Positions 1 through 19,121 of a stretch of 20,000 bases of DNA are shown here, piece by piece. Source of the DNA: Dehalococcoidia bacterium (GTDB taxonomy: Bacteria > Chloroflexota > Dehalococcoidia > DSTF01 > RBG-16-68-14); assembly GCA_040882355.1 (NCBI GenBank), contig JBBEBM010000054.1:61328-81327 (forward strand), in the 5' to 3' direction. Both the position numbers and the translations under genes were made by a program. Each line of letters begins with the position of its first letter. Within the stretch, counting starts at the first letter, position 1. The notes beneath the pieces were generated by a model. The model saw nothing but the letters and a program-made list of their open reading frames with translations. It was not told where the DNA came from and did not search any database.

Positions 1-935
1 GCCCGCACCGTCGCCCCGCCCGCCGTGGTTACGGCGATCAGTTCCGAAAGCGCCAGGTCGCCGTTCTCGCACCACACCTCGAGCTGCTGTTCGCCGTCGA
101 TCTGGCTCAGCGTCACATCACGCACGCCACGGATCGTCCGGAGGCGAGCCAGCTCGGCCGTGCGAAAGCCATCGAGCGTAATCGTCAGTCCGCGCAAGCC
201 GTCGGCAGCGACGCGAAGCTCGCCCGGTCGCAGCTCGTTCTGGAGGCGGCCCTCCGCCATGATCGCGATCCTGTCACACACTGCCGCTGCCTCTTCCGCC
301 TGGTGCGTGACAAGCAGCACCGTCATGCCCTCCTGCGCGACGAGGACGCCCCTGATCAGCGACCAGAGCTCGCGCGCATTCGCGGGGTCGACGCTGCGCG
401 TCGGTTCGTCGAGCAGGAGCACCTTCGGGTGACGCAGCAGGGCGCGCACAAGGGACATGCGGTGCCGGATGCCGGCGGAGTAGAACGAGTAAGGCTGGTC
501 CAGATAAGACGCGATGCCCAACCGCCCAGCGATCTCGTCGATCATGTGTCCGGCCGTCGCGCCGTGTATGTCATTGAGTGCGGCGAAGAACTCCATGTTC
601 TGGCGGCCGGTCAGGCGCCAGTAGAAGCTGCGGTCCTCGCCGAACGTGTAGGAAACCGCCGCGCGCGCCTCTCGCTCGTCCGCCACGACGTTGTAGCCCT
701 GCACGAACGCCGTGCCGGCGTCCGGGCGCACCAACGTCGCGAGGACCTTGAGGAGGGTTGTCTTGCCGGCCCCGTTCGAACCGAGAATGCCGACAACCTC
801 GCCCTGCTCGACGCGTAGGTCAAGCCCGTCGAGCACGCGCGTGCGCGGCCCGCTCAGCGGGTGCCGCAGCGTTGCGCGCAGGCCGCGGTGAGCCGGGTAG
901 TCCTTGACCAGGCCACGCACGTCGATCGCGTTCAT
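1..935 (-). CDS. ABC transporter ATP-binding subunit (probable lasso peptide exporter); 3' end lies beyond the window
   Basis: Not in the ORF track; translated by hand from the ATG at 935, which overlaps the kinase stop (ATGA). MNAIDVRGLVKDY..., Walker A GSNGAGKTT, signature-like YSAGIRHR, Walker B LLLDEPT, H-loop VTHQ. The frame stays open to the window edge. Confidence 0.9.
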   Translation of the reverse strand, partial: MNAIDVRGLVKDYPAHRGLRATLRHPLSGPRTRVLDGLDLRVEQGEVVGILGSNGAGKTTLLKVLATLVRPDAGTAFVQGYNVVADEREARAAVSYTFGEDRSFYWRLTGRQNMEFFAALNDIHGATAGHMIDEIAGRLGIASYLDQPYSFYSAGIRHRMSLVRALLRHPKVLLLDEPTRSVDPANARELWSLIRGVLVAQEGMTVLLVTHQAEEAAAVCDRIAIMAEGRLQNELRPGELRVAADGLRGLTITLDGFRTAELARLRTIRGVRDVTLSQIDGEQQLEVWCENGDLALSELIAVTTAGGATVR

Positions 936-1909
936 TCGGCCGGCTCTGCCGTCGTTATCGTGTCGACAACCTCGTTCAATCGCCCCAGATCACGCGGGCA
1001 GGCCAGCGCGTAGACCGGCGTCATCTCTGCGACCTTACGGAAGACTTCAAGCTGTTGCGCCAGCAGCTCCGGCTCCAGCGCCAGGAGTTGCGCCATGTAG
1101 CCATTTGCCAGGAGCGCCAGCAGCGCGTCGCGGCCGTGCAGTTGCCGGACGGCGACATGGCCTTCAGGCGTCACCGGCACAAGGACGTAGAGTGCGCGCA
1201 GGGGCCGCGCCCCGTCGCACACTTCACCCAGTTCTGAGCCGGGCGCGACACGTTTGTCGAGCCACGAGGCGTGACGCGGCAACTTTTCCCACGTCGAGCC
1301 ATCGAACAGGTGCTGGAGCGCGTCTGGCCAGAGTTTCATGCTGGGGAAGCTGGGGCCGACTCTTGGCCCATCGTCGTTGAGTTCAAGCGCCAGCACGTCG
1401 TCGGTGAGGAGGGCGGCGCCTCGCGCCAGCAGCGCCGCCCCAAGCGTCGATTTGCCGTATCCGGAGGGCGCCAGCAGGCCAACGGCCCCGCCTTCGATCA
1501 CGACCGCGCTGCCGTGAAGGCTGGTCTGCCCCTGCAACTGCAGGGCGAAGCCAAGCACCGGGCCGCTCACCGCCGCGGCGGCGTCAGAGAGCTTCGCTGC
1601 GTCCGCCGACCACTCGATGAGGCGTCCGTCACGCATGACGCTGAAGCGTCCGATCTCCGGATACACCCAGAGGTAGCGATCGCCCTGTCTTTCGACACGG
1701 TAGAAGACCGCGCCGTCCTCGTCGATAACTTCATGGACCGGGTCGCCGGCAGTCGACCGCCATTCCTCATGCTGCCGGCGCACCTTCAGGACCGGTGTTC
1801 CCGCGCTGATCGCGGGCAGCATGGGCAGCGGCAGGTCGCTCTCGAGCACCGTACCGTACGCCCGATACAGAAAGGTTGGTCTGGCGGCGATGGTTTGCGA
1901 ACGCGTCAT
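932..1909 (-). CDS. HPr-kinase-like P-loop kinase, probable lasso peptide kinase (PadeK/ThcoK type)
   Basis: LHGSAV...APSGYGKST...LLTDDVLAL motifs of the HPrK C-terminal fold. Lies directly downstream of the precursor genes. Confidence 0.85.
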   Translation of the reverse strand: MTRSQTIAARPTFLYRAYGTVLESDLPLPMLPAISAGTPVLKVRRQHEEWRSTAGDPVHEVIDEDGAVFYRVERQGDRYLWVYPEIGRFSVMRDGRLIEWSADAAKLSDAAAAVSGPVLGFALQLQGQTSLHGSAVVIEGGAVGLLAPSGYGKSTLGAALLARGAALLTDDVLALELNDDGPRVGPSFPSMKLWPDALQHLFDGSTWEKLPRHASWLDKRVAPGSELGEVCDGARPLRALYVLVPVTPEGHVAVRQLHGRDALLALLANGYMAQLLALEPELLAQQLEVFRKVAEMTPVYALACPRDLGRLNEVVDTITTAEPAE

Positions 1910-1994
1910 GGCCTGTCCGAAGCCTCACCACGCCTCTGCTGGTCCGAAGGTGTGTCCCGCGGCCAGCATCGAGAGGCGGGAGTGCGAGGTTTAG

Positions 1995-2159
1995 CTAGTC
2001 CGCACCCCCACCGCTTAGGGAATGCAGAATGTCCTGGTTCTCGAAGAGCACCAGGCCGTCACCAGCGCCAAAGGTCTTGTTCTTGGCCATCTTGGTGATC
2101 GCCCGAATGTCGCCGTAGGGCAACAGTACGGGCTTCTCATACGCCTTGCGAATCCCCAT
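1995..2159 (-). CDS. Lasso peptide precursor A3 (54 aa): MGIRKAYEKPVLLPYGDIRAITK|MAKNKTFGAGDGLVLFENQDILHSLSGGGAD
   Basis: Strong SD (GGAAAGGAGGGG) upstream of the ATG at 2159. Leader has an exact YxxPxLxxxGxxxxxT motif. The longer ORF-track start at 2219 runs through the SD. Confidence 0.9.
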   Translation of the reverse strand: MGIRKAYEKPVLLPYGDIRAITKMAKNKTFGAGDGLVLFENQDILHSLSGGGAD

Positions 2160-2291
2160 ACAGCCCCTCCTTTCCTTGCGCTTGGACGAGTCGGTCAGCG
2201 TCTTCTGACCGCGGGACACCTCAGCTAGCGTTCAGCCCCGCCGCTGGCGCAGATGTGTCCCGCGGCCAGCATCGAGAGGCGGGAATGCGGG

Positions 2292-2441
2292 TTAGCTGAT
2301 CGTTTGCAGAATGTCCTGGTTCTCGAAGACTACCAGGCCGTCACCAGCGCCGAAGGTCTTGTTCTTCGGCATGGTGGTGATCGCCCGAATGTCGCCATAG
2401 GGCAACAGCACGGGCTTCTCGTACGTCTTGCGAATCCCCAT
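2292..2441 (-). CDS. Lasso peptide precursor A2 (49 aa): MGIRKTYEKPVLLPYGDIRAITT|MPKNKTFGAGDGLVVFENQDILQTIS
   Basis: Absent from the ORF track; translated by hand (ATG 2441, TAA 2292-2294). Same SD and leader motif as A3, 42/49 aa identical to A3, ends in Ser. Confidence 0.9.
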   Translation of the reverse strand: MGIRKTYEKPVLLPYGDIRAITTMPKNKTFGAGDGLVVFENQDILQTIS

Positions 2442-2510
2442 ACAGCCCCTCCTTTCCTCACGCTTGGACGAGTCGGTCAGCGTTCTGACCGCGGGACACC
2501 ATAGTTGTCA

Positions 2511-2577
2511 ACCCGACCGCGGGCGCGCCGGCGCCGAGCGCCACGCGCATGCCGCTGTGGCCTTTTCGCGGCGGGGG
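2511..2577 (-). other. GC-rich imperfect stem-loop between precursors A1 and A2
   Basis: Inner gccac...gtggc arms and imperfect outer cccgaccgcg...cgcggcggg arms. Seen by eye, not folded computationally. Confidence 0.35.
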
Positions 2578-2588
2578 TCTCACATGCC

Positions 2589-2807
2589 TTAGGACAGACC
2601 AGTATCGCCTCCTCCGCTGGGTTGAGCCTCCCAGTGGAAGAAGATGAACAGGTCTCCGGGGCCCCAGTCCTTGTGGCGGAACCGGTGCGTAGTCAACTCC
2701 CGGATATCGCCATACGGCTGGATCGCCGGGCGCTGATACGCCTTGCGGCTTCCCTGACCACTATCCCTCTCCCTAGGCGTCGACGAGCTGGCGACTTTGC
2801 GTGCCAT
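2589..2807 (-). CDS. Lasso peptide precursor A1 (72 aa): MARKVASSSTPRERDSGQGSRKAYQRPAIQPYGDIRELTT|HRFRHKDWGPGDLFIFFHWEAQPSGGGDTGLS
   Basis: SD GGGGAGGAGGTG just upstream of the ATG at 2807. Leader YxxPxIxxxGxxxxxT shares PYGDIR with A2/A3. Overlaps the 3' end of the cyclase by 35 nt. Confidence 0.88.
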   Translation of the reverse strand: MARKVASSSTPRERDSGQGSRKAYQRPAIQPYGDIRELTTHRFRHKDWGPGDLFIFFHWEAQPSGGGDTGLS

Positions 2808-4680
2808 GCGACACCTCCTCCCCTTGTTGTTCCCGAAGCCACAGGCCCGCGGTGATCGCCCTCCACAAGGCGTGCCACCATGGGTGCTGACGGCTCCGGT
2901 ATGTCTCCAACTCTGTTGCCAGAGTGGGGCCATCTACGTAAAACAGCCGGCCCAGCGGACCGTCGAGCAACGCCGCATCGACGCGTTCGCGGTCGCGATC
3001 AAGCAGGCCGGTGTTCATGAGCTCATCGAAGATACCCTTGTCTGTACGCTCCACCACCACCTCAGGCAGCCGCGGACGCATAGCGTCGCGCAGGAGCGCC
3101 TTCGACCGTCCCGGGCGAACGTTCACCCAGGAGGGAAAGCGCAGCATCAGCTCCACCACACGCAGGTCCCAGAACGGTGAGCGCGCCTCCACACCGGCCG
3201 GCAGCGATGCCTGCCGCTCGCGCCATCCAATCACGGGCAACACCTCGCGGCGGTGCAGCGCCCAGAACAGTTCCAGGTCGTCGGCCTTGCGCCAGAGCGT
3301 CGGGACCTCCGGCGTTTCAAGCGCCGCGTCCAAGCCCAAGGCGGCGATCGCATCTGCGTCGATCCAGGGCGGCAGCGGGCTGGGGGCGGGCCGCCCGCGC
3401 CATGCGCGAACCCGGTGACGGAGCGCGTTTGGCGTCAGCGGAGCCAGGCCGGCCGATGCGAGCACGCTGAGGGTTGAGCGGTTATAGGCACGGCCCCAGG
3501 CGCTCGCGTCGCGCAGGGCGTGGGCCCAGTGCCCGCCGATCAACAGCTCGGCTATGTATTCCGTGGAGCTGCTCATGCACTCGTCCCCGCCTATGCCGTC
3601 AAGCAGAACGCAGACGCCGTCGTCGCGAGCCGCTTCCGCCAGGCGCACCATGAGAGGCGCCTGCATTGGCACGTTCGGCTGATCGAACACCGAGTCAGGC
3701 AGGTAGTGCGAGCTCAGGCTCCAGCAGTCGTCGACCGGGATCTCTTGCACGCTGATGCCGAGCTGGTGGCCGACCGCTCGAGCGTAGTGTCGCTCGTCCA
3801 TCCCGCTCGAGCCCTTGACGTAGGCGTTGTACGCGCGGAGATTGGGCGTGGCTTCGCGGGCGCGCGCGGCGACGTATGACGAGTCAAGCCCGCCGCTGAG
3901 CAGTACAGCGGGCGCCGAAGGGGCGCGCACCGCCGCGGCGGTCGCCTGGCCGAAGACTTCTTCGAAGTGCTCCACGTACTCCTCGCGGCGCTTGTACCGC
4001 AGCGTGGGCCGAGGTCCGAAACGCCAGTACTCCTGCAGCAGGACCTCGTCCCCGCGGGCCAGCAAGTAGTGCGCCGGCGGCACTTCGGCCACCGAAGCGT
4101 AGGGTGTTGCGCCCGGTTCGGGCACGGCGCCCGTGAGGTGACACGCGAGCACGAGCGAATCGATCGTGCGGGGCACGTCCGGGTGCGCGAAGAGCTGCTG
4201 CGGCTCCGACCCGACGATCAGCCGCTGCCCGACACGCGCATAGACCAACGGCCGAAAGCCGCGCTGGTCGCGCGCCGCGAACAGCGATCCGCTCCGGCTG
4301 TCCCAGAGCGCGAAGGCGAAATCGCCGATGATGCGGTCGAGGCAGGCGGTCTGCCATCGCTCGTAGGCGAGGGCGATGAGGTCGGCGTCGGTTGGCGCCT
4401 CGCGAAAGAGGTAGATGCCCAGCCCCTGCGCGAGGTCTTCGCGGTTGTCGAGGCGTCCGTCCAGGGCGATCTGGTAACGCCCACCGCAGACATGGGTGGG
4501 CAGGCCCTCTCTCGTCGCTTCGGGGGTCGTAGGCAGAATGCGCTGGCCCAGCGCGATGCCGGGGGCCAGCCAGACATGCCCCTGCGACCCGCGATGCGCG
4601 ATCGCGTCGAGCAGACCCTGAAGCTGCTCCCGGTCTACAGGCGCGCCGCTGGCATCGTAGATCGCCGCGATCCCACTCAC
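2773..4680 (-). CDS. Lasso cyclase (C protein; asparagine synthetase B-like macrolactam synthetase)
   Basis: AsnB two-domain architecture with the LSGGLDSS PP-loop, DGIGGDE and RSPFWD motifs. N-terminus is MSGIA (no catalytic Cys). GTG start overlaps the B2 stop. Confidence 0.92.
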   Translation of the reverse strand: MSGIAAIYDASGAPVDREQLQGLLDAIAHRGSQGHVWLAPGIALGQRILPTTPEATREGLPTHVCGGRYQIALDGRLDNREDLAQGLGIYLFREAPTDADLIALAYERWQTACLDRIIGDFAFALWDSRSGSLFAARDQRGFRPLVYARVGQRLIVGSEPQQLFAHPDVPRTIDSLVLACHLTGAVPEPGATPYASVAEVPPAHYLLARGDEVLLQEYWRFGPRPTLRYKRREEYVEHFEEVFGQATAAAVRAPSAPAVLLSGGLDSSYVAARAREATPNLRAYNAYVKGSSGMDERHYARAVGHQLGISVQEIPVDDCWSLSSHYLPDSVFDQPNVPMQAPLMVRLAEAARDDGVCVLLDGIGGDECMSSSTEYIAELLIGGHWAHALRDASAWGRAYNRSTLSVLASAGLAPLTPNALRHRVRAWRGRPAPSPLPPWIDADAIAALGLDAALETPEVPTLWRKADDLELFWALHRREVLPVIGWRERQASLPAGVEARSPFWDLRVVELMLRFPSWVNVRPGRSKALLRDAMRPRLPEVVVERTDKGIFDELMNTGLLDRDRERVDAALLDGPLGRLFYVDGPTLATELETYRSRQHPWWHALWRAITAGLWLREQQGEEVSHGTQSRQLVDA

Positions 4681-5138
4681 GATGCTTTCTCCAACTTCAC
4701 AAGCGCCACCAGGCGCTCTGCAGGCGCCTCAAACACCTCGAACGCGGCGCAGTGGCTCGGTGTGTCGTTTACGGGCTCTCCTGCCACCTCGACCCAAGCG
4801 TGGGCGGCCATCCTATCAGATCCTTTGAGTACACCGATGCGCATTTGTCCTTCGATGCCACGGCGGCGCAGGAGCCAGATCAGGACGAGCGACCGCTGCA
4901 GGCAGCGGCCGCCGAACGGCCAGCGGTTGGCGACAGCGTCGTCTATCCAAGCCAGGCGCGCCGCCTCCGTGCGGTCCGCGCGACCGCCTGACGGCGCACC
5001 GAGGGTGCCCTGCACCCAGCGACCGAGCAGCGCGCGCGGCGGCAGCAGAAAGCCGACCTGCGAGACGCCGAAGTAGACCACCGTCTCGGCCAGCCGGAAC
5101 AGCGTTCGAGGTGTGAGTTGCCTAGCTCGCCGCACCAT
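4677..5138 (-). CDS. Lasso peptide leader peptidase B2 (transglutaminase-like)
   Basis: RCLQRSL (Cys) and AHAWVE (His) motifs, followed by PVND (Asp). Probable start is the ATG at 5138 or the next GTG, overlapping the B1 3' end. The exact start is uncertain. Confidence 0.92.
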   Translation of the reverse strand: MVRRARQLTPRTLFRLAETVVYFGVSQVGFLLPPRALLGRWVQGTLGAPSGGRADRTEAARLAWIDDAVANRWPFGGRCLQRSLVLIWLLRRRGIEGQMRIGVLKGSDRMAAHAWVEVAGEPVNDTPSHCAAFEVFEAPAERLVALVKLEKAS

Positions 5139-5433
5139 CCTCCTTTTTCTCGAAGGCGAGGCCTTTCGCGACAAGCTCGGCCACGAACGAGTCGACGTCG
5201 GCGCGGAGCGCCTCCGGGGCCACGTCAAACTCCTCCACGAGGGTAGCGCAGATGGATGAAACGGAGTCGTCGTCAGCAAGAAGCTGCCAGACGCGCGTGG
5301 CAACGGCGTTCAGGCCGTAGTACTGGCCGGCGTCCAGGTCGAGCGCCACCGCCTCGTCGTCAATGACACGACAGAGCGCGCGGGGGTTGATGCTGTAACG
5401 GCGGTCCGCGACCGCCACTCGGTGGTCTTGCAT
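5122..5433 (-). CDS. RiPP recognition element / PqqD-family protein (lasso B1)
   Basis: 103 aa with DDEAVALDLDAGQYYGLNAVATRVWQLL...EEFDV...DVDSFVAELVAKGL, the typical PqqD pattern. SD AGAGGAGAGG. Confidence 0.93.
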   Translation of the reverse strand: MQDHRVAVADRRYSINPRALCRVIDDEAVALDLDAGQYYGLNAVATRVWQLLADDDSVSSICATLVEEFDVAPEALRADVDSFVAELVAKGLAFEKKEDGAAS

Positions 5434-5460
5434 AACCTCTCCTCTCTCGATGCCGATACT

Positions 5461-5485
5461 GCTCGTTCAGAATCGCCGAACGAGC
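5461..5485 (-). promoter_or_regulatory. Stem-loop in the putative 5' UTR of the lasso operon
   Basis: Perfect 8-bp inverted repeat gctcgttc/gaacgagc. On the minus-strand RNA it extends by one G.U and one G-C pair. Confidence 0.45.
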
Positions 5486-5749
5486 GTCACGCTGACTGAC
5501 TCATCTAAACGATAACGATCAAAGGTGGAGAGATGGTTGAGACGCAGGTGTAAGTGCCGGCCAGCAGGCCGGGCGGAATCGGGCTTTCGCCGGGCTCGAG
5601 GCGGGCGGCGATCCTCCCTGAGCCACCCCGGTTCCACGTCAATGCCACCGCCGTTCAACAACCGATCAACCCGCCAAATGTAGAAGGTTATGAGACGATG
5701 AAACACGCGTGAACGCGAGCCTCCTCCAGGCTTGCTCGGAGGGTTCCCC

Positions 5750-7477
5750 ATGCAGGTCCTCGGTATCAACTCCTACCTCCACGATTCGTCGGCGGCCCTG
5801 ATCAAGGACGGCCGGCTTGTCTTTGCGGCAGAGGAGGAGCGCTTCTCCCGGATCAAGAAGGACGCCCGCTTCCCCAGGCTCGCCATCCAGGCCGCGCTCG
5901 ATCATGCGGGTATCGAGTTCAGCGAACTGGAGGGCATCGCTTTCGGCTGGAACAAGGGCGGCGCCACGCCTCTGCACACGCTCCGCTCCACGCTCACCGG
6001 TGGGCTGCCGTTCAGCGCCCGCTACGTCGTCGACTCGTTCATGTCGACCGCGCGCGAGGTGTATCAGGCCAACGGGCGGCGAGCGCTAGAGCGCGCCTTC
6101 GGGCCGTTCGATCACAAGCGCATCTTCTTCGTCGACCACCATGACGCCCACGCGTGGAGCACCTACGCTCTCTCCGGCTACGACGAAGCGCTGGTCCTGA
6201 TCATGGACGGCCGCGGCGCCAGCCAGTCCACCACGCTCTACCATGGTCGCGGCGACAAACTGCGCCTCATCCGCACCATCAAATTCCCGAACTCGCTCGG
6301 CTCCTTCTACGAGTCGTTCACCGACCTGCTCGGCTTCGAGCGCAACAACGATGAGTGGAAGGTGATGGGCCTGGCCGCGTACGGCGAGCCGACACACGAC
6401 GTGAGCGACGCGCTCCGCGTTCTGCCGGACGGCTACAAGCTGAACTCGCAGCTCGTCTGCGGGAGCTGGTTCAACGACCTCTCACGCATGACCGCCCGCT
6501 ACGGGCCGCGCCGCGACCCCGAGCGGTTCATCACGGACGACGATCGCAACCTCGCCGCTTCCGTACAGCGCGCGTTGGAGGAAGCGGTATTCCGCCTGGT
6601 CGAGGTGGGCGTGCAAATGACAGGCTGTCGCAACCTCTGCCTGGCCGGCGGCGTGGCGATGAACTCGAAGGCGAACGGTCGCCTGCTCGCCGCCGGCCTC
6701 GTCGACGACGTCTTCGTGCAGCCCGCCGCGACTGATGACGGCACCGCCATCGGCGCAGCCGTTGCCGCGCACGCCGAGCTTGGCGCGCCGCCGCCCCGGT
6801 ATCGCATGACCGACGCCTACCTCGGCCCGGAGTTCGCCGAAAGCGAGATCGCCTCGGTGCTGGACACCTACAAGCTGCGCGCCACCCATGTGCCGAACGT
6901 GGAGGAGGTCGCCGCTGGCCTGCTGGCCGATGGCCAGATTGTCGGCTGGTTCCAGGGCCGGATGGAGTTCGGGCCGCGCGCGCTCGGCAGCCGCTCGATC
7001 CTGGCCGACCCGCGCCGACCGGAAATGAAGGACCGCGTGAACGAGTGCGTGAAGTTCCGCGAGGGCTGGCGCCCGTTCGCGCCGTCCTGCCTGGAAGAAG
7101 CAGCGCCGGAGTACTTCGAAGGCTGTCGTGAGGCGCCCTTCATGATCCTCACCTTCGACGTGCGCCCCGAAAAGCGCGACGTCATCCCGGCGGTCACTCA
7201 CGCCGACAACACCGCCCGGGTCCAGACCGTGAGCGAGGCGGCCAACCCCCGCTACTGGAACCTGATCCGGGAGTTCGCCCGCCTCACCGACGTGCCGGTG
7301 GTCATGAACACGTCCTTCAACCTGCGCGGCGAACCGATCGTCTGCGCGCCCAAGGACGCAATCCGCACGTTCTACTCATCGGGCCTCGACTATCTGGTAC
7401 TGGGAAGCCACATTGTCGCCAAGGACCCCTTCTGGCAGCCATCCGCGAGCGGGCAACTCGCGACGGCCGACCGGTAG
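5750..7477 (+). CDS. O-carbamoyltransferase (NodU/CmcH/TobZ family)
   Basis: MQVLGI...HDSSAAL...AAEEERFSRIK, HHDAHA, EWKVMGLAAYG, LAGGVAMN, GRMEFGPRALGSRS, VKFREGWRPFAPS and NTSFN motifs. SD GGAGG at 5738-5742 favours the ATG at 5750. Confidence 0.95.
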   Translation: MQVLGINSYLHDSSAALIKDGRLVFAAEEERFSRIKKDARFPRLAIQAALDHAGIEFSELEGIAFGWNKGGATPLHTLRSTLTGGLPFSARYVVDSFMSTAREVYQANGRRALERAFGPFDHKRIFFVDHHDAHAWSTYALSGYDEALVLIMDGRGASQSTTLYHGRGDKLRLIRTIKFPNSLGSFYESFTDLLGFERNNDEWKVMGLAAYGEPTHDVSDALRVLPDGYKLNSQLVCGSWFNDLSRMTARYGPRRDPERFITDDDRNLAASVQRALEEAVFRLVEVGVQMTGCRNLCLAGGVAMNSKANGRLLAAGLVDDVFVQPAATDDGTAIGAAVAAHAELGAPPPRYRMTDAYLGPEFAESEIASVLDTYKLRATHVPNVEEVAAGLLADGQIVGWFQGRMEFGPRALGSRSILADPRRPEMKDRVNECVKFREGWRPFAPSCLEEAAPEYFEGCREAPFMILTFDVRPEKRDVIPAVTHADNTARVQTVSEAANPRYWNLIREFARLTDVPVVMNTSFNLRGEPIVCAPKDAIRTFYSSGLDYLVLGSHIVAKDPFWQPSASGQLATADR

Positions 7478-7538
7478 ATCCCTCATATCGGGGTCAGGCA
7501 TTCGCGCCGATACTCTTCCGTCAAGGAGGGATATCGCG

Positions 7539-7763
7539 ATGTACAGGAAGGCAATCATCGGCACGGCGGCAGGCGTCCTCGCTTGGGGACTCTACAAGCT
7601 CACCAACGAGGCGAATCAGACGCCCTCACTCGAGGACGACCTGTTCTACCTGGACAGCGTCCGCAGCCACGCTCGGCATCGCCAGACACGACCCGCTCTG
7701 GCGGAAGCGCGCGACGCCTTCGACGAACGCATGCGCGACGTGATGAAGCGTAAGGCGGCTTAG
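7539..7763 (+). CDS. Small hypothetical protein (74 aa) with an N-terminal hydrophobic anchor
   Basis: AAGGAGG SD upstream of the ATG at 7539. Begins MYRKAIIGTAAGVLAWGLYK. Confidence 0.65.
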   Translation: MYRKAIIGTAAGVLAWGLYKLTNEANQTPSLEDDLFYLDSVRSHARHRQTRPALAEARDAFDERMRDVMKRKAA

Positions 7764-8188
7764 GGCTCCTTGTCCGCAGCCAGGATCGATTTCGCCTGGT
7801 TGATCCCGTCAAGCAGCAGCAGGGCGTTCCCGCTCGCCATCGAGCGAATCAGGCCGGCGTAGATCAGGCGATCGCACGCGCGTCTCAGCACCCCCGCCGC
7901 CTCGTCATCGCCCATCGTCTCGGCGCGCTGACAGATCGCGATGATCTCGACCAGCGCTCCGCCGAGGTCGGTGTCGCGAACGTCGCCCTTGGTCTGCAGG
8001 GCTGCGGGCGCCTGCCGCTCTACAACAACAAAGTCCTCCAGCACGACAGCAATCGCATCCTGGGGATCCGACGGCAGGCCGTCATCGGCGCTGTCGTCCG
8101 AGTCGCTGCTGCAGGCGACCAACCAGGGAATCATGATCGCGCTCGTGAGGAGGAGAACCCTCCAGCGTCCGAACGGCTGTCTCACCAC
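7760..8188 (-). CDS. Hypothetical lipoprotein
   Basis: SD GAGAGGAG upstream of the GTG at 8188. Basic N-region, hydrophobic stretch, lipobox LVAC, then a Ser/Asp-rich linker. Confidence 0.65.
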   Translation of the reverse strand: MVRQPFGRWRVLLLTSAIMIPWLVACSSDSDDSADDGLPSDPQDAIAVVLEDFVVVERQAPAALQTKGDVRDTDLGGALVEIIAICQRAETMGDDEAAGVLRRACDRLIYAGLIRSMASGNALLLLDGINQAKSILAADKEP

Positions 8189-8257
8189 GTTGTCGTCTCC
8201 TCTCTCACGGCGTTCAGTATACCCCGGCGATCCGCGCTGGCGTAAACAGCCCATGTA

Positions 8258-8286
8258 TCGACTTCAGCACCAGCACGTTGTACTAT
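8258..8286 (+). promoter_or_regulatory. Putative sigma70 promoter for the glycoside hydrolase gene
   Basis: TCGACT-N17-TACTAT, ending 8 nt before the ATG at 8295. Confidence 0.4.
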
Positions 8287-8294
8287 GCAAACCC

Positions 8295-10844
8295 ATGCGT
8301 CGGAGGCGCACACCGGCTTTCCTCATGCCTCGCACCGGCCTTGTCATTGCTTTGCTGGCGCTCGCCGCCTCTCTCGCCGCGCTTCCCCCGTGGTCGGAGC
8401 CCGCATCGGCCGGCTCGACGGTGAATCTGACGGTGGACGGCTCGCAGCAGTTCCAGGACATCGACGGACTGGGCGTGAACATCAACCCGAAGAACTGGAA
8501 CGATGGCGAGCTAATCCCGGCGCTGGACCTGCTCGCCGACCAGCTTGGCGCGGAGATCTTTCGCGTTGACCCGTTCGGCCAGTCGGACTGGGAGGTGGTG
8601 AACGACAATAGTCAGGCTGGGACGTTCAACTGGGCGTACTACAACGACATCTACGAATCGCCATCGTTCCAGGACCTCTGGCAGACGCTGGAGTACCTCG
8701 AGCAGAAGGACGTCCAGATCATGGTCGGCGTCTCCGGCCTCGTGCCCTCCTGGATGGGCGGCACGGCCGTGGACCCCGGCTGGGAGGCGGAGTGGGTCGA
8801 AATGATCGCCTCGCTCGTCTACTACGCTCGCGTCGTGCGCGGCATCGACTTCACCATGTTCAGCCCAGCCAACGAGACCGACTACGGCCCGCCGGAGGGC
8901 CCGTCCGCGGACGAGGCAAGCTACGTGGACCTGGTCCACGATCTGTTTCTTCGCCTCGACTCGCTGGGCCTATCGGACATCCGGCTCGTCGGACCGGATG
9001 TCGCCTTCCTGGACATGGACTACCTCGACGAGATCTGCGCCGACGCATACCTACTGGGAAAGCTCGATCACTTCGCCTTCCACAACTACAGCGGCAACAT
9101 GAACCAGGCGCCAGGCAACGCCGTGACGTGCGGGCGCGACGCCTGGATGACGGAGTGGTCCCAGGCGACCACAGACGGCTTCCTGGACAATGGCAACCAG
9201 GTGGCCGACGAGTGGGCGTTCGCGCGCGTCATGACCGACTATCTGTTCAACCACCTGAGCGACGACGACGGGGCGGGCCCGGGCGAGGGCGCCGAAGCCG
9301 TGCTCGCCTGGGACGCGTTCGACAACATTCACGAGCACAACCCCTCCGGCCTCTACTCACGCTGGGGTCTGGTCGCGTACGACCTGGACACCGGCGTCTA
9401 CACGCCCAAGGACCGGTTCTTCACCAACGCGCAGTTCTTCAAATTCATCTCGCCCGGCTCCGCGCGCATCGGCGCTGCCGAATCCGAACCCAACCTGCAG
9501 GTGCTGGCTTTCCGCCACGCCGCCACGGGGCGGCTGACCCTCGCCGGTCAGAACGTGGGCGGCGCGACGCTCACGCTCAACGGTACGATCAGCAACGTTC
9601 CGTCCGCGCCGACCACGCTGGCGCTGTACCGCACCAGCAGCTCGCTCGACCTCGCCCGCCAGGCAAACGTTCCTGTGAGCAGCGGGACGTTCTCGATCCA
9701 GGTGCCTCCCGACAGCTTCTTCACGCTGACGGGCACGCCCGGCGTCGCCGAATCCACGCCACCATCCATCTCGGGCGTCTCTGCGGCCGGCGTGACCGCT
9801 ACCGGCGCCTCGATCGTTTGGAACACCAACGAGGTCGCGGACACGCGTGTTGAGTGGGGCACGACCGCGTCCTACGGGCAAAGCACGGTCTTCGACGCGG
9901 GCCTGGTAACGTCACACCATCAGAAGCTGGCAGGTCTGCTGCCCGCCACGACGTACCATTACCGCGCGCACAGCGCCGATGCTTCCGGGAACCCCTCCGT
10001 GAGCAGCGACCACACCTTCACGACCACTACCGCCCCGCCCACGCTCACCGTCACGTTCGACGATCTGGCTGGACAAGACCAGGTGCTGAACGGCCAGTAC
10101 CCCGCAGGCGTCATCGACTGGGGCACGAACGCCTGGTACCACTCCGGCCCGTACGGCCTCTTCAACACAAAGAGCATCGGCTTCAACGGCCCGTCCATCA
10201 CCGCCGCCACGTTTACGCTCCTCACGCCGCGCCGCCTGGTGAGCATTCGGGCCCACAACGGCGCGTCAGGCCTGGCGACCAACACGACGGTGACGCTGAG
10301 CTGCCCCGGCCAGCCCGACAAGCGCGCCGATCTCGTCGTAGGCGAGATCGCGACGATTCCCACCGGCTGGGCCGGCACCTGCTCCAGCGTGACGATCGCA
10401 AGCACGGACGGCTGGGTCACGAACTTCGACGACCTCGTCTTCACCAGCGGCGGCGGCGCGCCCCAGGGCCCGGACAACGACGGCGACGGCTGCAGCGACG
10501 CCGCGGAGCAGCAGACCACACCGGGTAGCGAGGTGATCGGCGGGCTGCGAGATGCCAACGATGTCTGGGACTTCATGGACCAGTTTGTCGGCGCGCCGCT
10601 GGCAAGGGACCGGATTGTGGCCGTCGGCGACATCGGCGCCGTGGTCGGCCGCTTCGGCGCCACCGGGAGCCCGTCGGGCGACCCGCTGGTCCCTCCTGCA
10701 GGTTCCACCGGCTACCATACGAGCGCCGATCGCCAGGGGTCCATCCCGGGCCAGAACCCCTGGAACCTGCGCCCGCCCGACGGCGTGATCTCTATCGGTG
10801 ACGTGGGCGCCGCTGTCGGGCAGTTCGGGCACAGTTGCGCGTAG
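8295..10844 (+). CDS. Secreted multidomain clan-A glycoside hydrolase (GH30-like) with an FN3-like domain and a C-terminal flexitail/dockerin-like domain
   Basis: Signal peptide MRRRR...ASA|G. Acid/base motif SPANETD and nucleophile motif WMTEWS. FN3-like WNTNEVADTRVEWGTT...YHYRAHSADASGN. C-terminal DNDGDGC...QFGHSCA. Start is 8295 or 8325. Confidence 0.75.
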   Translation: MRRRRTPAFLMPRTGLVIALLALAASLAALPPWSEPASAGSTVNLTVDGSQQFQDIDGLGVNINPKNWNDGELIPALDLLADQLGAEIFRVDPFGQSDWEVVNDNSQAGTFNWAYYNDIYESPSFQDLWQTLEYLEQKDVQIMVGVSGLVPSWMGGTAVDPGWEAEWVEMIASLVYYARVVRGIDFTMFSPANETDYGPPEGPSADEASYVDLVHDLFLRLDSLGLSDIRLVGPDVAFLDMDYLDEICADAYLLGKLDHFAFHNYSGNMNQAPGNAVTCGRDAWMTEWSQATTDGFLDNGNQVADEWAFARVMTDYLFNHLSDDDGAGPGEGAEAVLAWDAFDNIHEHNPSGLYSRWGLVAYDLDTGVYTPKDRFFTNAQFFKFISPGSARIGAAESEPNLQVLAFRHAATGRLTLAGQNVGGATLTLNGTISNVPSAPTTLALYRTSSSLDLARQANVPVSSGTFSIQVPPDSFFTLTGTPGVAESTPPSISGVSAAGVTATGASIVWNTNEVADTRVEWGTTASYGQSTVFDAGLVTSHHQKLAGLLPATTYHYRAHSADASGNPSVSSDHTFTTTTAPPTLTVTFDDLAGQDQVLNGQYPAGVIDWGTNAWYHSGPYGLFNTKSIGFNGPSITAATFTLLTPRRLVSIRAHNGASGLATNTTVTLSCPGQPDKRADLVVGEIATIPTGWAGTCSSVTIASTDGWVTNFDDLVFTSGGGAPQGPDNDGDGCSDAAEQQTTPGSEVIGGLRDANDVWDFMDQFVGAPLARDRIVAVGDIGAVVGRFGATGSPSGDPLVPPAGSTGYHTSADRQGSIPGQNPWNLRPPDGVISIGDVGAAVGQFGHSCA

Positions 10845-11293: not shown

Positions 11294-12784
11294 ATGACCG
11301 CGCCCAGCGCCACCAAGTACGAAGTCGTCATCGGCATCGAGGTGCACGCGCAGTTGCTCACGAAGAGCAAGATGTTCTGCGCGTGCCGGGCCGACTACTT
11401 CGGCGCGCCGCCCAACACGCACGTCTGTCCGGTCTGCCTCGGGATGCCGGGAGTGCTTCCGGTGATCAACCAGCAGGCCGTCGAGTACACGATCATGACC
11501 GGCCTGGCGCTGAACTGCGACATCCCCGAGCAGGCCAAGTTCGACCGCAAGAACTACCCGTATCCGGACCTGATGAAGGGCTACCAGATCTCCCAGTACG
11601 ACCTGCCCCTCTGCAAGAACGGCTGGCTCGAGATCGACCTCGATGGAGAGACGACCCGCATCGGCGTGACGCGCGTCCACCTGGAGGAGGACACCGCACG
11701 CAGCATGCACCGCATGAATGAGGCGGGCGAGGGCTACAGCCTGATCGACGTGAACCGCGCGGGGACCGCGCTGATGGAGATCGTCTCGGAGCCTGACGTG
11801 CGGTCCGGCCAGCAGGCGCGCCTCTACCTGACGAAGCTCCAGCAGACGCTGCGCTACCTGGGCGTCAGCCAGGCGAACATGGAAGAAGGCAACATGCGCT
11901 GCGAGCCGAACATCAGCCTGCGGCCCGCCGGCCGCGAAGAGTTCGGCACCAAGGTGGAGCTGAAGAACTTGAACAGCTTCCGCGCCGTCGAACAGGGCGT
12001 CGATTACGAGATCGAGCGCCAGCGCGAGATCCTCGACTCGGGCGGCAAGGTGGTCCACGAGACGCGCGGCTGGCGAGACGAGGAGAGTCGCACCGTCAGC
12101 CAGCGGAGCAAAGAGCTCGCCGAGGACTACCGTTACTTCCCGGAGCCCGACTTACCCCTGCTCACGATCGACCGGTCGTACGTCGAAGAGCTTCGCGCTC
12201 GCCTACCGGAGCTGCCCGACGCGAAGCGAAATCGCTTCATGGAGCAGTACGCCCTCGGCCACTACGAGGCGAATCTGCTGATCGCCACGCGCGCCCGCGC
12301 CGAGTACTTCGAGCGGGCGCTGGACGGCGCGAAAAGCGGCGACGGGACACTGCAGGCCCGCGCCAAAGCCGTGGCGAATTGGATGCTCGGCGATTTTGCG
12401 CGGTTGCTTAACGCCGACGGCATCGAAATCAGCGACTCGAAAGTCGCGCCCGAACAGCTCCACGAGCTGATTGTGCTGATCGAAGAGGGCACGGTCTCCA
12501 CCACGGGCGCCAAGGGCGTCTTCGAGGAGATGTTCCGCAGCGGCAAGGCGCCACGCGCGATCGTCGTCGAGCAAGGCCTGAGCCAGATTAGCGCTGCGGA
12601 CGAGATCCAGGGCGTCGTCGCGCAGGTGATCGGCGCGAACCCCCAGCCCGTCGCCGACTACCACGGCGGCAAGGAGGAAGCATTGAAGTTCCTCGTCGGT
12701 CAGGTGATGCGCGAGACGCGGGGGCGCGCCAAGCCTGATCTCGTTCACGACCTGCTGAAGCAAGAGCTCTCGAAGGGCGGCTAG
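11294..12784 (+). CDS. gatB: Asp-tRNA(Asn)/Glu-tRNA(Gln) amidotransferase subunit B
   Basis: [53 protein letters not shown] and FLVGQVM motifs. Confidence 0.98.
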
Positions 12785-12788
12785 CGAG

Positions 12789-13934
12789 CTGTCCCCGACG
12801 CGCACCCGACGCTCTACCGTCCTTCAAACCTCCCTCACTGTCGCCGCTGGGGCCACGTTCCTCGTACTGACAGCGTGCGCAGGCGAGGCCGCCCCGCCGG
12901 CGCCGACCGCGACGCCTCGCCCTAGCCCTACCGTCACCGCCACCGCAACGCCTGAGTTCCTGGAGGCGGCGCAGGTGCCGCCTCTGACGCTCGCCGAAGT
13001 CTTTCCACGGCGCGACCTGGCCACGTTGCGCCTCGACCCCGCCCGGCTGCGTACCGTCATCGCCACTGGCGACGTGATCCCGGCGCGCGGCGTCGACTAC
13101 GCCATCCGCCGGCGCGGCGATGACTTCCTCTTCCCCGTCGCCGCCACCACACAGCTCACAAGCAACGGCGACCTCACCGTCATCAACCTGGAAGCGCCGC
13201 TCGTCTCCTATTGCGGGCCGGCGCCATCCGGCACGTTCACCTTCTGCGGCCGGCCAGGGTTCGTCCAGGCACTGCAGGCGGCCGGCGTCGACGTCGCCAC
13301 GCTCGAGAACAACCACATCGGCAACTATGGCTCGGACGGCATCGCCGAGACGGCGGGCCACCTCGACGCAGCAGGTATCGCCTGGGCCGACCGCGACTCG
13401 CCGGCCGTGCGCGACCTGCGGGGGTTGCGCTTCGGCTTCCTCGCCTTCAACGGCGTCGGCGAGCGCATCGACCGGCAAGCGATGGCCGCGCAGGTCCAGG
13501 CGCTGCGCCCCCAGGTGGACGTGCTGATGGTGGCCGTGCACTGGGGCGCCGAGTACGTGCGCGTCCCCCAGACGGCGCCCGGCGTCGCGGATGACTACCC
13601 GGTCGAGATCGCGCATCTGGCTATCGATTCGGGCGCGGACCTGGTGATCGGCAACCACCCGCACTGGGTTCAAGCGGTCGAGCTATACAACGGCAAGTTC
13701 ATCGCCTACGCCCACGGCAACTTCATCTTCGATCAGATGTGGTCCTACGAGACGCGCGTCGGCGTCGTGGGCCGGTACACGTTTTATGACAAGTTACTCG
13801 TCGGCGTGGAGTTCGCGCCGGTGCTCAGTCAGGACTACTCCCAGCCTGTGCCGATGCAGGGTGCCGAGTCCCAGGCGGTCCTGGACGCGATGGAGGCCGC
13901 GAGCATTGAGCTCGCGGCGAAGCTGGTTCCCTAG
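12789..13934 (+). CDS. CapA-family (PGA_cap) metallophosphoesterase-like lipoprotein
   Basis: GDVI, INLE, NNHIGNYG, HWG, GNHPH and HGNFIFDQ motifs. The frame extends upstream of the ORF-track GTG (12975) through a Pro/Thr linker and lipobox LTAC to a CTG at 12789. Confidence 0.85.
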   Translation: MSPTRTRRSTVLQTSLTVAAGATFLVLTACAGEAAPPAPTATPRPSPTVTATATPEFLEAAQVPPLTLAEVFPRRDLATLRLDPARLRTVIATGDVIPARGVDYAIRRRGDDFLFPVAATTQLTSNGDLTVINLEAPLVSYCGPAPSGTFTFCGRPGFVQALQAAGVDVATLENNHIGNYGSDGIAETAGHLDAAGIAWADRDSPAVRDLRGLRFGFLAFNGVGERIDRQAMAAQVQALRPQVDVLMVAVHWGAEYVRVPQTAPGVADDYPVEIAHLAIDSGADLVIGNHPHWVQAVELYNGKFIAYAHGNFIFDQMWSYETRVGVVGRYTFYDKLLVGVEFAPVLSQDYSQPVPMQGAESQAVLDAMEAASIELAAKLVP

Positions 13935-13972
13935 CCGCGAAAGTGGTAATCAGAATGCGCAGACCTGCATAT

Positions 13973-14001
13973 TCGACGCTGATCCAATCGGCTGGTATAA
14001 T
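13973..14001 (+). promoter_or_regulatory. Sigma70 promoter for yvcK, probably giving a leaderless transcript
   Basis: TCGACG-N17-TATAAT with extended TG. The ATG at 14008 begins after a 6-nt gap from the -10 box. Confidence 0.7.
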
Positions 14002-14007
14002 CTTGCC

Positions 14008-15348
14008 ATGCGCTTCCTGAAGATCGACTCCAGCTTCGTGAAGTGGTTCTACTTCGGGATGCATATCAAGCGCTGGCTGCTCCTGTTGCTGATCGGGGTG
14101 GCCGTCATGGCGCTGGGCTTCGCCTACTTCCTGCGCGAGGTCTACCAGAGCTACGTCTTCCCGTCCGAGGTGTACTACCTAACCCTCCAGTTCCTGCCCC
14201 GCTGGGTTCGAGGGGCGATGTTCCTTGCCCTGAGCATCGGCATCATCATCTTCGCGGTCTGGCAGCTCAACCGTTCGCTCCTCTCCGCCTTCATCCAGTC
14301 GAGGCGCGACGAGAGTCTGGTGAACATCATTTACAACCACCGCTACCGGTTGCGCGGCCCGAAGATCGTCGCCATCGGCGGCGGTACCGGCCTATCGACC
14401 CTGCTGCGCGGGCTCAAAGAGCACACGGGCAACTTGACAGCCGTCGTCACCGTCGCCGATGACGGTGGCAGCTCTGGCAGGCTGCGCCGCGAGCTCGGCC
14501 TGCCGCCGCCCGGCGACGTGCGCAACTGCATCGCGGCGCTGGCGGACGTGGAACCGCTGATGACCAAGCTCTTTCAGTATCGCTTCGACGAAGGTGCGGG
14601 CCTGGAAGGTCACAGCTTCGGCAACCTCTTCATCGCCGCCATGACCTCCGTCACGGGCAACTTCGAGGAGGCGGTGCGCGAGACCAGCCGGGTCCTGGCC
14701 GTGCGCGGGCAGATCCTCCCGTCGACACTGGCCAACGTCACCCTCTCAGCCGTCGGAGAAGACGGCGAAGCGATCCACGGCGAATCGCAGATCACGGAGC
14801 GCGGCGGCCGCATCAAGCAGGTCTTCATCCACCCAGAGCACGCCCAGGCAAACCCGGACGCGATCAGAGCCATACTCAATGCGGACATGGTGATTGTGGG
14901 GCCGGGCAGCCTGTTCACCAGCGTCCTGCCCAACCTGCTCGTCGAGGGCATTCGGCGCGCCATCGAGATGTCGACAGCCGTCAAGGTCTACGTCTGCAAC
15001 GTCGCGACGCAACACGGAGAGACGGACGCCTTCTCAGTCAGCGACCACTACGAAGCGCTGTACGAGCACATTCGCGCCCACTTCTTCCACTACGTGGTCG
15101 CCAACAACAACATCTCGCGCGACGGCCTGCCAGAGGCATGGCGATCCGAGCCGGTGCGCATCGACCGACAGCGCGTGGACGGCGCGACGGTCTTCGCGGC
15201 TGATGTTATCAGCGAAGAGAACCGGTACCACCACGATTCGAAGAAGCTCGCCGCCGCATTGATCCGCCTCTACTTCCAGCGGCGCGAGTTCGAGCCGCCT
15301 CCCTCCCGCGAGGAGGAGAAGCGGCCTCAAGAGGCGGCAATCGTCTAA
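14008..15348 (+). CDS. yvcK: YvcK/GlmR (CofD-like, UPF0052) protein with an N-terminal transmembrane extension
   Basis: KIVAIGGGTGLS, VADDGGSSGRLR, PPGDVRNC, GHSFGNL and GPGSLFTSVLPNLLV motifs. Two hydrophobic helices at the N-terminus. Confidence 0.92.
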   Translation: MRFLKIDSSFVKWFYFGMHIKRWLLLLLIGVAVMALGFAYFLREVYQSYVFPSEVYYLTLQFLPRWVRGAMFLALSIGIIIFAVWQLNRSLLSAFIQSRRDESLVNIIYNHRYRLRGPKIVAIGGGTGLSTLLRGLKEHTGNLTAVVTVADDGGSSGRLRRELGLPPPGDVRNCIAALADVEPLMTKLFQYRFDEGAGLEGHSFGNLFIAAMTSVTGNFEEAVRETSRVLAVRGQILPSTLANVTLSAVGEDGEAIHGESQITERGGRIKQVFIHPEHAQANPDAIRAILNADMVIVGPGSLFTSVLPNLLVEGIRRAIEMSTAVKVYVCNVATQHGETDAFSVSDHYEALYEHIRAHFFHYVVANNNISRDGLPEAWRSEPVRIDRQRVDGATVFAADVISEENRYHHDSKKLAAALIRLYFQRREFEPPPSREEEKRPQEAAIV

Positions 15349-15363
15349 CAGGGAGACAGAACC

Positions 15364-15600
15364 GTGACCTTCAGCGACTACCTGAATATTGCCCAGCTAC
15401 TCATCTCCATCATCCTCATCGTCGTCGTCCTGCTACAGGTGCGGGGCACCGACGTGGGCGCCGCGTTCGGCGGCGGTGGGGGCGGCGGAGGCTCGTCGTA
15501 CCGCACGAGGCGCGGCCTGGAGAAGACGCTCTTCCAGCTCACGATCATCCTCGCGATCATCTTTGTGGGTATCTCTGCGCTGAGCGTGCGCTACTTCTAG
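15364..15600 (+). CDS. secG: Preprotein translocase subunit SecG
   Basis: 78 aa with two TM helices, VLLQ...GAAFGGG and RRGLEKTL. GGGAG SD before the GTG. Confidence 0.93.
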   Translation: MTFSDYLNIAQLLISIILIVVVLLQVRGTDVGAAFGGGGGGGGSSYRTRRGLEKTLFQLTIILAIIFVGISALSVRYF

Positions 15601-15638
15601 CGGGCGCTACCACTCGACACCGGTCCTTCTCCATCGCC

Positions 15639-17291: not shown

Positions 17292-18109
17292 TGTCGAACC
17301 CGATCATCACCCTGACCACCGACTTCGGCCTCAGCGACGCCTGCGTCGCCGCAATGAAGGGCGTCATCCTCGGCATCAACCAGCGGGCGACGCTCGTGGA
17401 CATCAGCCACGAAGTGCGCCCGCAGCAGATCCTGCAGGCGGCCTTCCTCACGCAGTCCGCCTGGCCGCACTTCCCGCCCGAGGCGCTCCACCTCGCAGTC
17501 GTCGATCCGGGCGTGGGCACCGAACGCAGCGCGCTCGCCCTCCAGACCCCGGGCGGACGCTTCGTGGGGCCGGACAACGGCGTCCTCTCCTCTGCGCTGC
17601 CGGACGAAGGCCGCCCGAATGGCGATTACACGGCGCGCGAGGTCGAGCTGCTCGCGGGACATCGCGCCTTCGCGATCACGAACGAGCGTTACCTGCGCGC
17701 GCCCGTCAGCGCTACGTTTCACGGTCGCGATGTCTTCGCGCCGGCCGCGGCGCACCTATCGCTGGACGTGCCCATCGAGGACCTCGGCGATCCTGTCGAG
17801 AGCGTCCTCGCCCTGCCACCTCTGCGCGCTTCCCGCGACGACGCCGGCCTGCGCGCCCAGGTCATCCACATTGACCGCTTCGGTAACGTGGTGCTCGATG
17901 CCCGCGCGGAGGACGCGGGCCCTTCGTTCGCCGTCGAGATCGCAGGACAGCTCGTGCCGGGTCCGGTGAGAACCTACGCGGAGGCGAGCGGTCTCGCCGC
18001 GGTAGTCGGCAGCGCCGGCTACCTGGAGATCGTGCTGCCCAGCGGCAACGCCGCCCAGGCGCTGGACGTCGATCTCGGTGAACCGGCCTTCGTGCGAGCG
18101 AGCGCGTAA
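17291..18109 (+). CDS. SAM hydroxide adenosyltransferase (DUF62; halogenase structural homologue)
   Basis: TLTTDFG, VVDPGVGTER, GPDNG, TFHGRDVFAP and IDRFGN motifs. Confidence 0.9.
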   Translation: MSNPIITLTTDFGLSDACVAAMKGVILGINQRATLVDISHEVRPQQILQAAFLTQSAWPHFPPEALHLAVVDPGVGTERSALALQTPGGRFVGPDNGVLSSALPDEGRPNGDYTAREVELLAGHRAFAITNERYLRAPVSATFHGRDVFAPAAAHLSLDVPIEDLGDPVESVLALPPLRASRDDAGLRAQVIHIDRFGNVVLDARAEDAGPSFAVEIAGQLVPGPVRTYAEASGLAAVVGSAGYLEIVLPSGNAAQALDVDLGEPAFVRASA

Positions 18110-18127
18110 CCGGCTAAGATCGACGCC

Positions 18128-19069: not shown

Positions 19070-19100
19070 GCAGCGGGCGCCCAATGGACGCCCGCTGCTT
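19068..19100. terminator. Probable bidirectional intrinsic terminator between convergent fmt and rplY
   Basis: Perfect 12-bp inverted repeat aagcagcgggcg/cgcccgctgctt, followed by gattt on the + strand. Confidence 0.75.
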
Positions 19101-19121
19101 GATTTCGCGTTCGTTCGCCGG

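Follow-up and report, generated by a model that had tools for sequence, protein, structure and literature searches.

Known lasso peptides close their ring on an Asp or Glu at core position 7, 8, or 9 (PMC9266682, PMC13352647, and PMC12214591), and reviews define the class by a ring from the α-amine to one of these residues, a rule that LassoPred hard-codes (PMC12214591). A gene cluster in a 20,000-nucleotide stretch of Dehalococcoidia DNA (contig JBBEBM010000054.1 of assembly GCA_040882355.1; whole genome, 3.3 Mb), hereafter called the window, raises the question of how a ring might be closed when the acid lies elsewhere. Our analysis confirmed a lasso-type cluster for peptides made on the ribosome and modified after translation (RiPPs), comprising B1, B2, a cyclase (C), three precursors (A1 to A3), an HprK-like kinase, and an ABC ATPase, all on the minus strand and with intact catalytic motifs. 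The kinase-containing lasso-type cluster with three precursors that the initial annotation had placed in a probable Chloroflexota genome was thus borne out, the class being Dehalococcoidia. Its further claim that the products are lasso peptides stood only in part: the cluster is of the lasso type, but A2 and A3 lack an Asp or Glu at positions 7 to 9, their first acid being Asp11, a departure that it had overlooked, and their ordinary lasso nature is doubtful.

Precursors with a fixed Lys-Asp spacing

When the genome was scanned in six frames for the lasso leader motif, seven matches emerged, namely, A1, A2, A3, and four unrelated frames. A1 (2589..2807, minus strand) is 72 amino acids (aa) long, with a predicted 32-aa core containing Lys6, Asp7, and Asp12 and ending in Ser; its homologs are P0142, P0160, P0162, and P0164. 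A2 (2292..2441, minus strand; 49 aa), missing from the open reading frames supplied with the initial annotation but correctly recognized there, is called publicly as protein P0003 and has a predicted 26-aa core with Lys5, Asp11, and a C-terminal Ser. A3 (1995..2159, minus strand; 54 aa) arose with A2 by tandem duplication (93% identity over 179 nucleotides [nt]) and likewise has Lys5 and Asp11, with a tail of five residues, the last being Asp, after the conserved Ser. All three carry the YxxPxL leader motif and a Thr at position −2, and a GGAGG-type site lies 5′ of each; under the standard leader rule, the predicted cores of A2 and A3 start with Met and that of A1 starts with His. The precursor models NF033521 and NF033528 matched weakly, below cutoff, and an ESM Atlas search placed A3 nearest to unnamed clusters, with named matches below 0.9. 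In agreement with the initial annotation, no characterized lasso peptide matched the cores. What the three share, by sequence and alignment, is a Lys-x-x-Gly-x-x-Asp motif, encoded on the minus strand at 2652..2672 in A1 (core residues 6 to 12), 2340..2360 in A2 (5 to 11), and 2058..2078 in A3 (5 to 11).

Homolog searches yielded 49 short proteins, A2 itself included; six long matches from one search were left out of the counts, and the four of these that were inspected were repeat proteins. The motif occurs in 40 of the 49, with its Asp at core position 9 (4 proteins), 10 (9), 11 (17), 12 (8), or 13 (2); an acid at positions 7 to 9 is missing from 31 of these 40. Wherever the Asp lies in this range of 9 to 13, the Lys precedes it by six residues. 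Alignment gaps in the family lie on the N-terminal side of the Lys or the C-terminal side of the Asp and not within the segment that joins them, even among close relatives (P0009 and P0010 versus A2; P0142 versus A1). Core residue 1 varies across 10 amino acids. The leader Thr is invariant (27/27 aligned), which favors the normal cut site (PMC10885120). The Asp7 of A1 is not kept in P0142, where the conserved Asp is that of the motif. A count that does not presuppose Lys gave the same picture: among 57 distinct cores, 31 lacked an acid at positions 7 to 9, and the residue six before their first later acid was Lys in 31 of 31.

Loci found through their enzymes, a less biased sample, provided 33 distinct cores, among them those from metagenome loci, of which 21 of 80 (among the matches listed) had a detected precursor; the metagenome cyclases among the matches listed were all distant, and these loci therefore served as a control set rather than as a source of clade members. 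Here, Lys at −6 was present in 3 of 3 cores without an acid at positions 7 to 9, versus 7 of 30 others, and all 23 cores without the Lys had an acid at position 8 or 9. Enzyme-found loci that fit the motif were L002 (Lys6/Asp12), L009 (Lys5/Asp11), and L103 and L104 (both Lys3/Asp9); L117, found by precursor profile, has Lys4/Asp10. In L124, a plasmid of the cultured archaeon Halopiger xanaduensis, a precursor at 9057, downstream of the cyclase and missing from the record's gene table, has Lys4/Asp10, a Gly lying one position closer to the Lys, and no acid at positions 7 to 9. In the sister clade, three loci whose genes are arranged in this order have cores that begin with Gly or Ser and contain Asp8 or Asp9. 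Altogether, the precursors break the ring position rule in a patterned way, and A2 and A3 can count only as candidate lasso peptides.

The six-residue spacing was also observed in cores of canonical look. Seven homologs without the motif have Lys2/Asp8, and Lys2/Asp8 or Lys1/Asp7 occurs in L036, L048, P0146, P0169 to P0171, and P0173 to P0175 and in LassoPred Bacteroidota rows, several of whose predicted cores have Lys1/Asp7. A plasmid search with precursor P0166 as the query gave no match.

Possible routes to ring closure

The reading that we favor, while rating it at slightly under an even chance, is that the cyclase joins the side-chain amine of the Lys, instead of the N terminus, to the Asp six residues on. 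By analogy with known systems, the kinase would phosphorylate the C-terminal Ser of A1 and A2, B1 would bind the YxxPxL leader, and B2, whose motifs are intact, would cut two residues past the invariant Thr. The cyclase would then adenylate the Asp of the motif and link it to the ε-amine of the Lys six residues earlier; the nucleotidyltransferase encoded nearby, perhaps with neighboring glycosyltransferases, may put a sugar on the phosphoserine, and the ABC pair would export the product. By our own atom count, a ring from the Lys Nε to the Asp at +6 has 26 atoms, the same as a Gly1-Glu8 ring and within the range of known lasso rings (22 atoms for Asp7 to 29 for Glu9), whereas α-amine rings to Asp10 through Asp13 would have 31 to 40. 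A fixed Lys-Asp distance behind an arm of variable length, often containing Pro, is what is expected if the Lys gives the amine; likewise, the window has a single cyclase for substrates with Asp11 and with Asp12, and closure between Lys and Asp would yield an identical ring for both. The product would have a 26-atom ring within lasso range and a free N-terminal arm. That a hidden branch of lasso peptides exists, side-chain closed and threaded with free arms at both ends, is a possibility that we hold tentatively, somewhat below even chances.

The fixed spacing would be accounted for equally well if a second protease or aminopeptidases trimmed the arm back to an N-terminal Lys, after which an ordinary seven-residue Lys1-Asp7 lasso ring would form. 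Gly1-Asp7 rings exist, as in huascopeptin (PMC13352647), predicted Bacteroidota cores in the LassoPred supplement begin Lys1...Asp7, and known cases of trimming by aminopeptidases exist among lanthipeptides (PMC10885120). Nevertheless, we consider trimming unlikely: the gene block common to the related loci showed no further peptidase gene, the arms are often Pro rich (P0136, P0145, and P0153; Met-Pro starts), the residues preceding the Lys contain no fixed site, and leader removal and ring closure appear to be coupled in lasso biosynthesis (PMC10885120). It also seems improbable, even if no new chemistry is needed, that the normal α-amine is used and rings of 9 to 13 residues are tolerated, with the Lys as a recognition or activity residue and oversized products that are probably unthreaded and branched-cyclic. 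Although fusilassin has been engineered to a 10-residue ring with a tolerance of ±1 (bioRxiv 10.1101/2020.11.25.399105) and Asp9 family members are catalogued as nine-residue rings (LassoPred lists two such Actinomycetota members, with Lys3/Asp9), one-residue ring changes usually lower the yield (PMC13352647), rings of 34 to 40 atoms would be unlikely to hold a tail, and both the gap-free Lys-Asp segment and the unconstrained residue 1 are left unexplained.

Alternatively, A2 and A3 types could form no ring at all and be linear phospho- or glycopeptides, comparable to the linear polyphosphorylated peptides known from Bacillota, with the cyclase closing only A1 (His1-Asp7) or joining Lys and Asp between molecules. 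Linear phosphorylated RiPPs with a kinase and a nucleotidyltransferase are found in polysaccharide loci (PMC13381572), and the Asp7 of A1 has counterparts at position 7 in 8 of the 57 distinct cores. However, the Asp is invariant together with the Lys, the A1 homolog P0142 shifts its first acid to position 5 while retaining the Lys, Gly, and Asp of the motif, and L117 and L124 each have a cyclase and a single detected Asp10 precursor; we regard the absence of a ring as quite improbable.

Several observations weigh against closure through the Lys side chain. The cores of A1, L002, and L009 also have an acid at positions 7 to 9, and those of L103 and L104 have Asp9, which would allow ordinary rings in all of these. 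The conservation of a Lys may reflect other roles, as in albusnodin, whose Lys10 is acetylated (PMC9266682). The homologs were collected with motif-bearing profiles and form a biased set with many close kin; only three enzyme-found cores are informative, two being the window's own duplicates A2 and A3, and the third, from Halopiger, was reached via a cyclase picked for its grouping with a profile-found locus. Moreover, cyclases from two or more distinct clades accompany the motif, and Lys-type and ordinary loci cannot be told apart by any cyclase residue. In quick and FastTree trees, the cyclases of the window, L002, L009, and L103/L104 formed one supported clade, next to a sister clade whose three known cores are ordinary, while the L117 cyclase fell in a separate clade. 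Asp361, the best candidate for a diagnostic residue, was rejected: it is present in 24 of 24 clade members, yet its counts are 6 of 7 in Lys-type loci versus 4 of 27 in ordinary loci. The folded cyclase model (pLDDT 88) matched AsnB and β-lactam synthetase and confirms an AsnB fold, nothing more; likewise, sequence and fold searches of the PDB with the cyclase returned AsnB-family enzymes, with no entry named as a lasso cyclase.

If Lys side-chain closure holds, the branch would span Chloroflexota, probably Actinomycetota, Proteobacteria, and haloarchaea, might take in many cores that are at present interpreted as Lys1-Asp7 or Lys2-Asp8, and would escape mining tools that demand an acid at positions 7 to 9. 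With a side-chain ring, the N terminus would be free, an advantage for use in fusions and in display, and a phospho-glycosylated C terminus could tie the peptide to the adjoining glycan pathway. Whether the outcome is a new linkage, natural rings of 10 to 13 residues, an unknown trimming step, or uncyclized products, each would be instructive. In the literature searched, which included few subscription papers, we found no lasso cyclase described with a Lys side chain as the nucleophile, no natural rings larger than nine residues, no Lys-x-x-Gly-x-x-Asp family, and no precursor-flanking helix; supplements, such as RODEO tables, may list members.

An inverted repeat around the precursors

A2 and A3 are each bracketed by an inverted repeat. 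On the minus strand, repeat analysis and folding placed the 5′ and 3′ arms at 2485..2499 and 2255..2269 for A2 and at 2205..2219 and 1952..1966 for A3; the A3 5′ arm is a second possible partner of the A2 3′ arm. The same arms, 15 to 17 bp long, flank the single precursor of L002, L009, L103, and L104, and in each of six cases 0 of 200 shuffles gave a duplex as long. Of 30 further precursors examined, A1 and those of the sister clade among them, only one, in L106, had a comparable duplex, with unrelated sequence. Between loci, compensatory changes altered two pairs on both sides, and one U-G became U-A. In the relatives, the 5′ arm lies within the last cyclase codons, and the matching VSRG is kept in 8 of 23 clade proteins checked; the window's arm copies are noncoding yet unchanged. 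Isolated cassettes folded with the arms paired at a probability of 0.6 to 1.0; in a transcript of the whole window, pairing between the two inner arms is an alternative. The genome encodes RNase III, and a search of Rfam with positions 1 to 6000 gave one chance-level match only. On the basis of four loci, of which two are closely related, we infer that the repeat forms an RNA helix protecting or excising the precursor message.

In L106, it is the second of two tandem precursors that has its own, different 15-bp inverted repeat (0 of 200 shuffles); helices of this kind may flank precursors in further lasso clusters.

Gene content, distribution, and comparison with known systems

B1 (5122..5433; 103 aa) is a RiPP recognition element (RRE) of the PqqD family (PF05402, E value 3.7e-20), and B2 (4677..5138; 153 aa) is a leader peptidase with intact Cys79 and His113 motifs (PF13471, E value 2.8e-23; NF033537 above cutoff) and the only PF13471 match in the genome. 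The cyclase (2773..4680; 635 aa), of the asparagine synthetase B fold, retains SGGLDSS and DGxGGDE motifs (PF00733, E value 1.4e-42) and scored 352 bits with NF033535, under the cutoff of 525. The three profiles that the initial annotation had named all matched, and an RRE, a transglutaminase-like peptidase, and an asparagine synthetase-like cyclase are all present, as in lasso clusters. The kinase (932..1909; 325 aa) matched PF07475 below cutoff (E value 3e-5), and its motif positions His132, Lys154, Asp170, and Asp171 are present; profile matches identified a DrrA-like ABC ATPase (1..935) that extends past the left edge. All five genes are on the minus strand. In the B1-B2-C-A1 stretch, which the initial annotation saw as translationally coupled, the overlaps are 17 nt (B1/B2), 4 nt (B2/C), and 35 nt (C/A1); kinase and ATPase overlap by 4 nt. 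A promoter scan found none, and terminators numbered 3 versus 1.9 expected.

As predicted, the cluster continues to the left. The retrieved flank encodes an ABC-2 permease, an NTP_transf_5 nucleotidyltransferase (PF14907, E value 8.5e-49), an opposite-strand GT4 glycosyltransferase, and a flippase and, further on, a GT2, two GT4s, a GNAT protein, an epimerase-aminotransferase fusion, a 2079-aa surface-type protein, and a TylF methyltransferase. L002, L009, L103, and L104 have the B1-B2-C-A-kinase-ATPase-permease block as well, and the nucleotidyltransferase comes next after the permease in L002, L009, and L104, the three contigs that reach that far; the GT4 genes that follow are kept in L002 and L009 but not in L104. 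The sister loci L097 and L098 gave nearly the same set of matches, and L096 is cut off early. With a cyclase profile at 1e-90, matches were found in 0 of 15 genomes from the same family, 3 of 92 from the rest of the order, 4 of 400 in a class sample (one of this clade and three of the sister clade), 2 of 400 in a phylum sample (both distant), and 1 of 65 in the order of the same-class genome G342. The distribution is patchy, many sampled genomes being incomplete. Judging by contigs of equal length, A1-, A2-, and A3-type genes are perhaps neighbors in other samples too.

In the left flank (L001, minus strand), the fusion gene (7771-10074) combines an NAD-dependent epimerase with a DegT aminotransferase and adjoins the GNAT gene in the glycan locus, and the 2079-aa protein (1447-7686) has S8 protease, staphylococcal nuclease-like, GSDH, and PKD domains with Thr/Pro-rich linkers. 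A repeat domain of about 125 aa, with no Pfam name, is common to this protein and a 967-aa protein at 7941-10844 (plus strand), which weakly resembles GH30 xylanases and has a PF16656 (purple acid phosphatase N-terminal) domain and, at its C terminus, a flexitail domain. Beside B1 lies a divergent NodU/CmcH-type carbamoyltransferase gene (5750-7477, plus strand) whose product could modify a glycan or a free amine; it was rejected as a cluster member, as tblastn found it at 0 of 14 loci (L002 and L095 being the same record and some upstream flanks short). Positions 11294-19799 hold what we take to be housekeeping-type genes (GatB, YvcK-like, peptide-binding protein, fmt, and L25).

The cluster is a pseudomycoidin-type gene set, here in Dehalococcoidia, with an ordinary gene order. 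Like the psm cluster of Bacillus pseudomycoides, it has split B1/B2, a cyclase, an HprK-like kinase, a nucleotidyltransferase, an ABC transporter, the order C, A, K, and a C-terminal Ser, in A1 and A2 (PMC6993621). The precursor placement that the initial annotation thought unusual therefore is not, the order B1-B2-C-A-K-ABC recurring in the relatives as well. In contrast to pseudomycoidin, there are three precursors, no acid at positions 7 to 9 in A2 and A3, a floating Lys-x-x-Gly-x-x-Asp, B genes upstream of C, a Dehalococcoidia host, and an inverted repeat around precursors. The PF14907 protein, here and in L002, L009, and L104, is a putative counterpart of PsmN.

The initial assignment to the paeninodin type was right about the kinase, whose His-Lys-Asp-Asp motif is that described for paeninodin and pseudomycoidin systems, and A1 and A2 end in Ser, the residue targeted by kinases of this type (PMC9266682). 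However, A3 ends in Asp, and a flank with a nucleotidyltransferase beside the kinase makes pseudomycoidin the closer match; as described in PMC9266682, the pade cluster lacks a nucleotidyltransferase and yields an ordinary class II lasso peptide. By analogy, phosphorylation and hexosylation of the terminal Ser are predicted for this pathway. A C-terminal Ser is found in 34 of the 40 motif-bearing family members; a short acidic tail follows the Ser in A3, P0001, P0002, P0148, and P0157, which may escape the kinase.

Class V lasso peptides, such as gelatinamin A, also place a Lys side chain in an isopeptide bond, but there a separate transpeptidase forms a second ring to the C terminus, whereas here the cyclase would close the main ring between Lys and Asp (PMC13178200). 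No class V lasso transpeptidase family was detected among the 22 cluster and flank proteins scanned. Graspetides and microviridins are RiPPs with side-chain-to-side-chain links, including Lys-Asp/Glu amides, but unlike the route proposed here, these depend on ATP-grasp ligases, and the scanned cluster and flank genes include no such enzyme. Pseudomycoidin-type clusters inside polysaccharide loci are already known, and the linear polyphosphorylated and paeninodin-like clusters of such loci similarly combine an RRE, a kinase, an NTP transferase, and an exporter among glycosyltransferases; the linear ones have a SipW-like signal peptidase, which was not seen at this locus, and no ring formation (PMC13381572). 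The phylum alone is not new, since the LassoPred table already holds 61 Chloroflexota rows. Thus, the gene set and order are known, and what is new is the regular failure of the 7-to-9 rule and the inverted repeat flanking the precursors.

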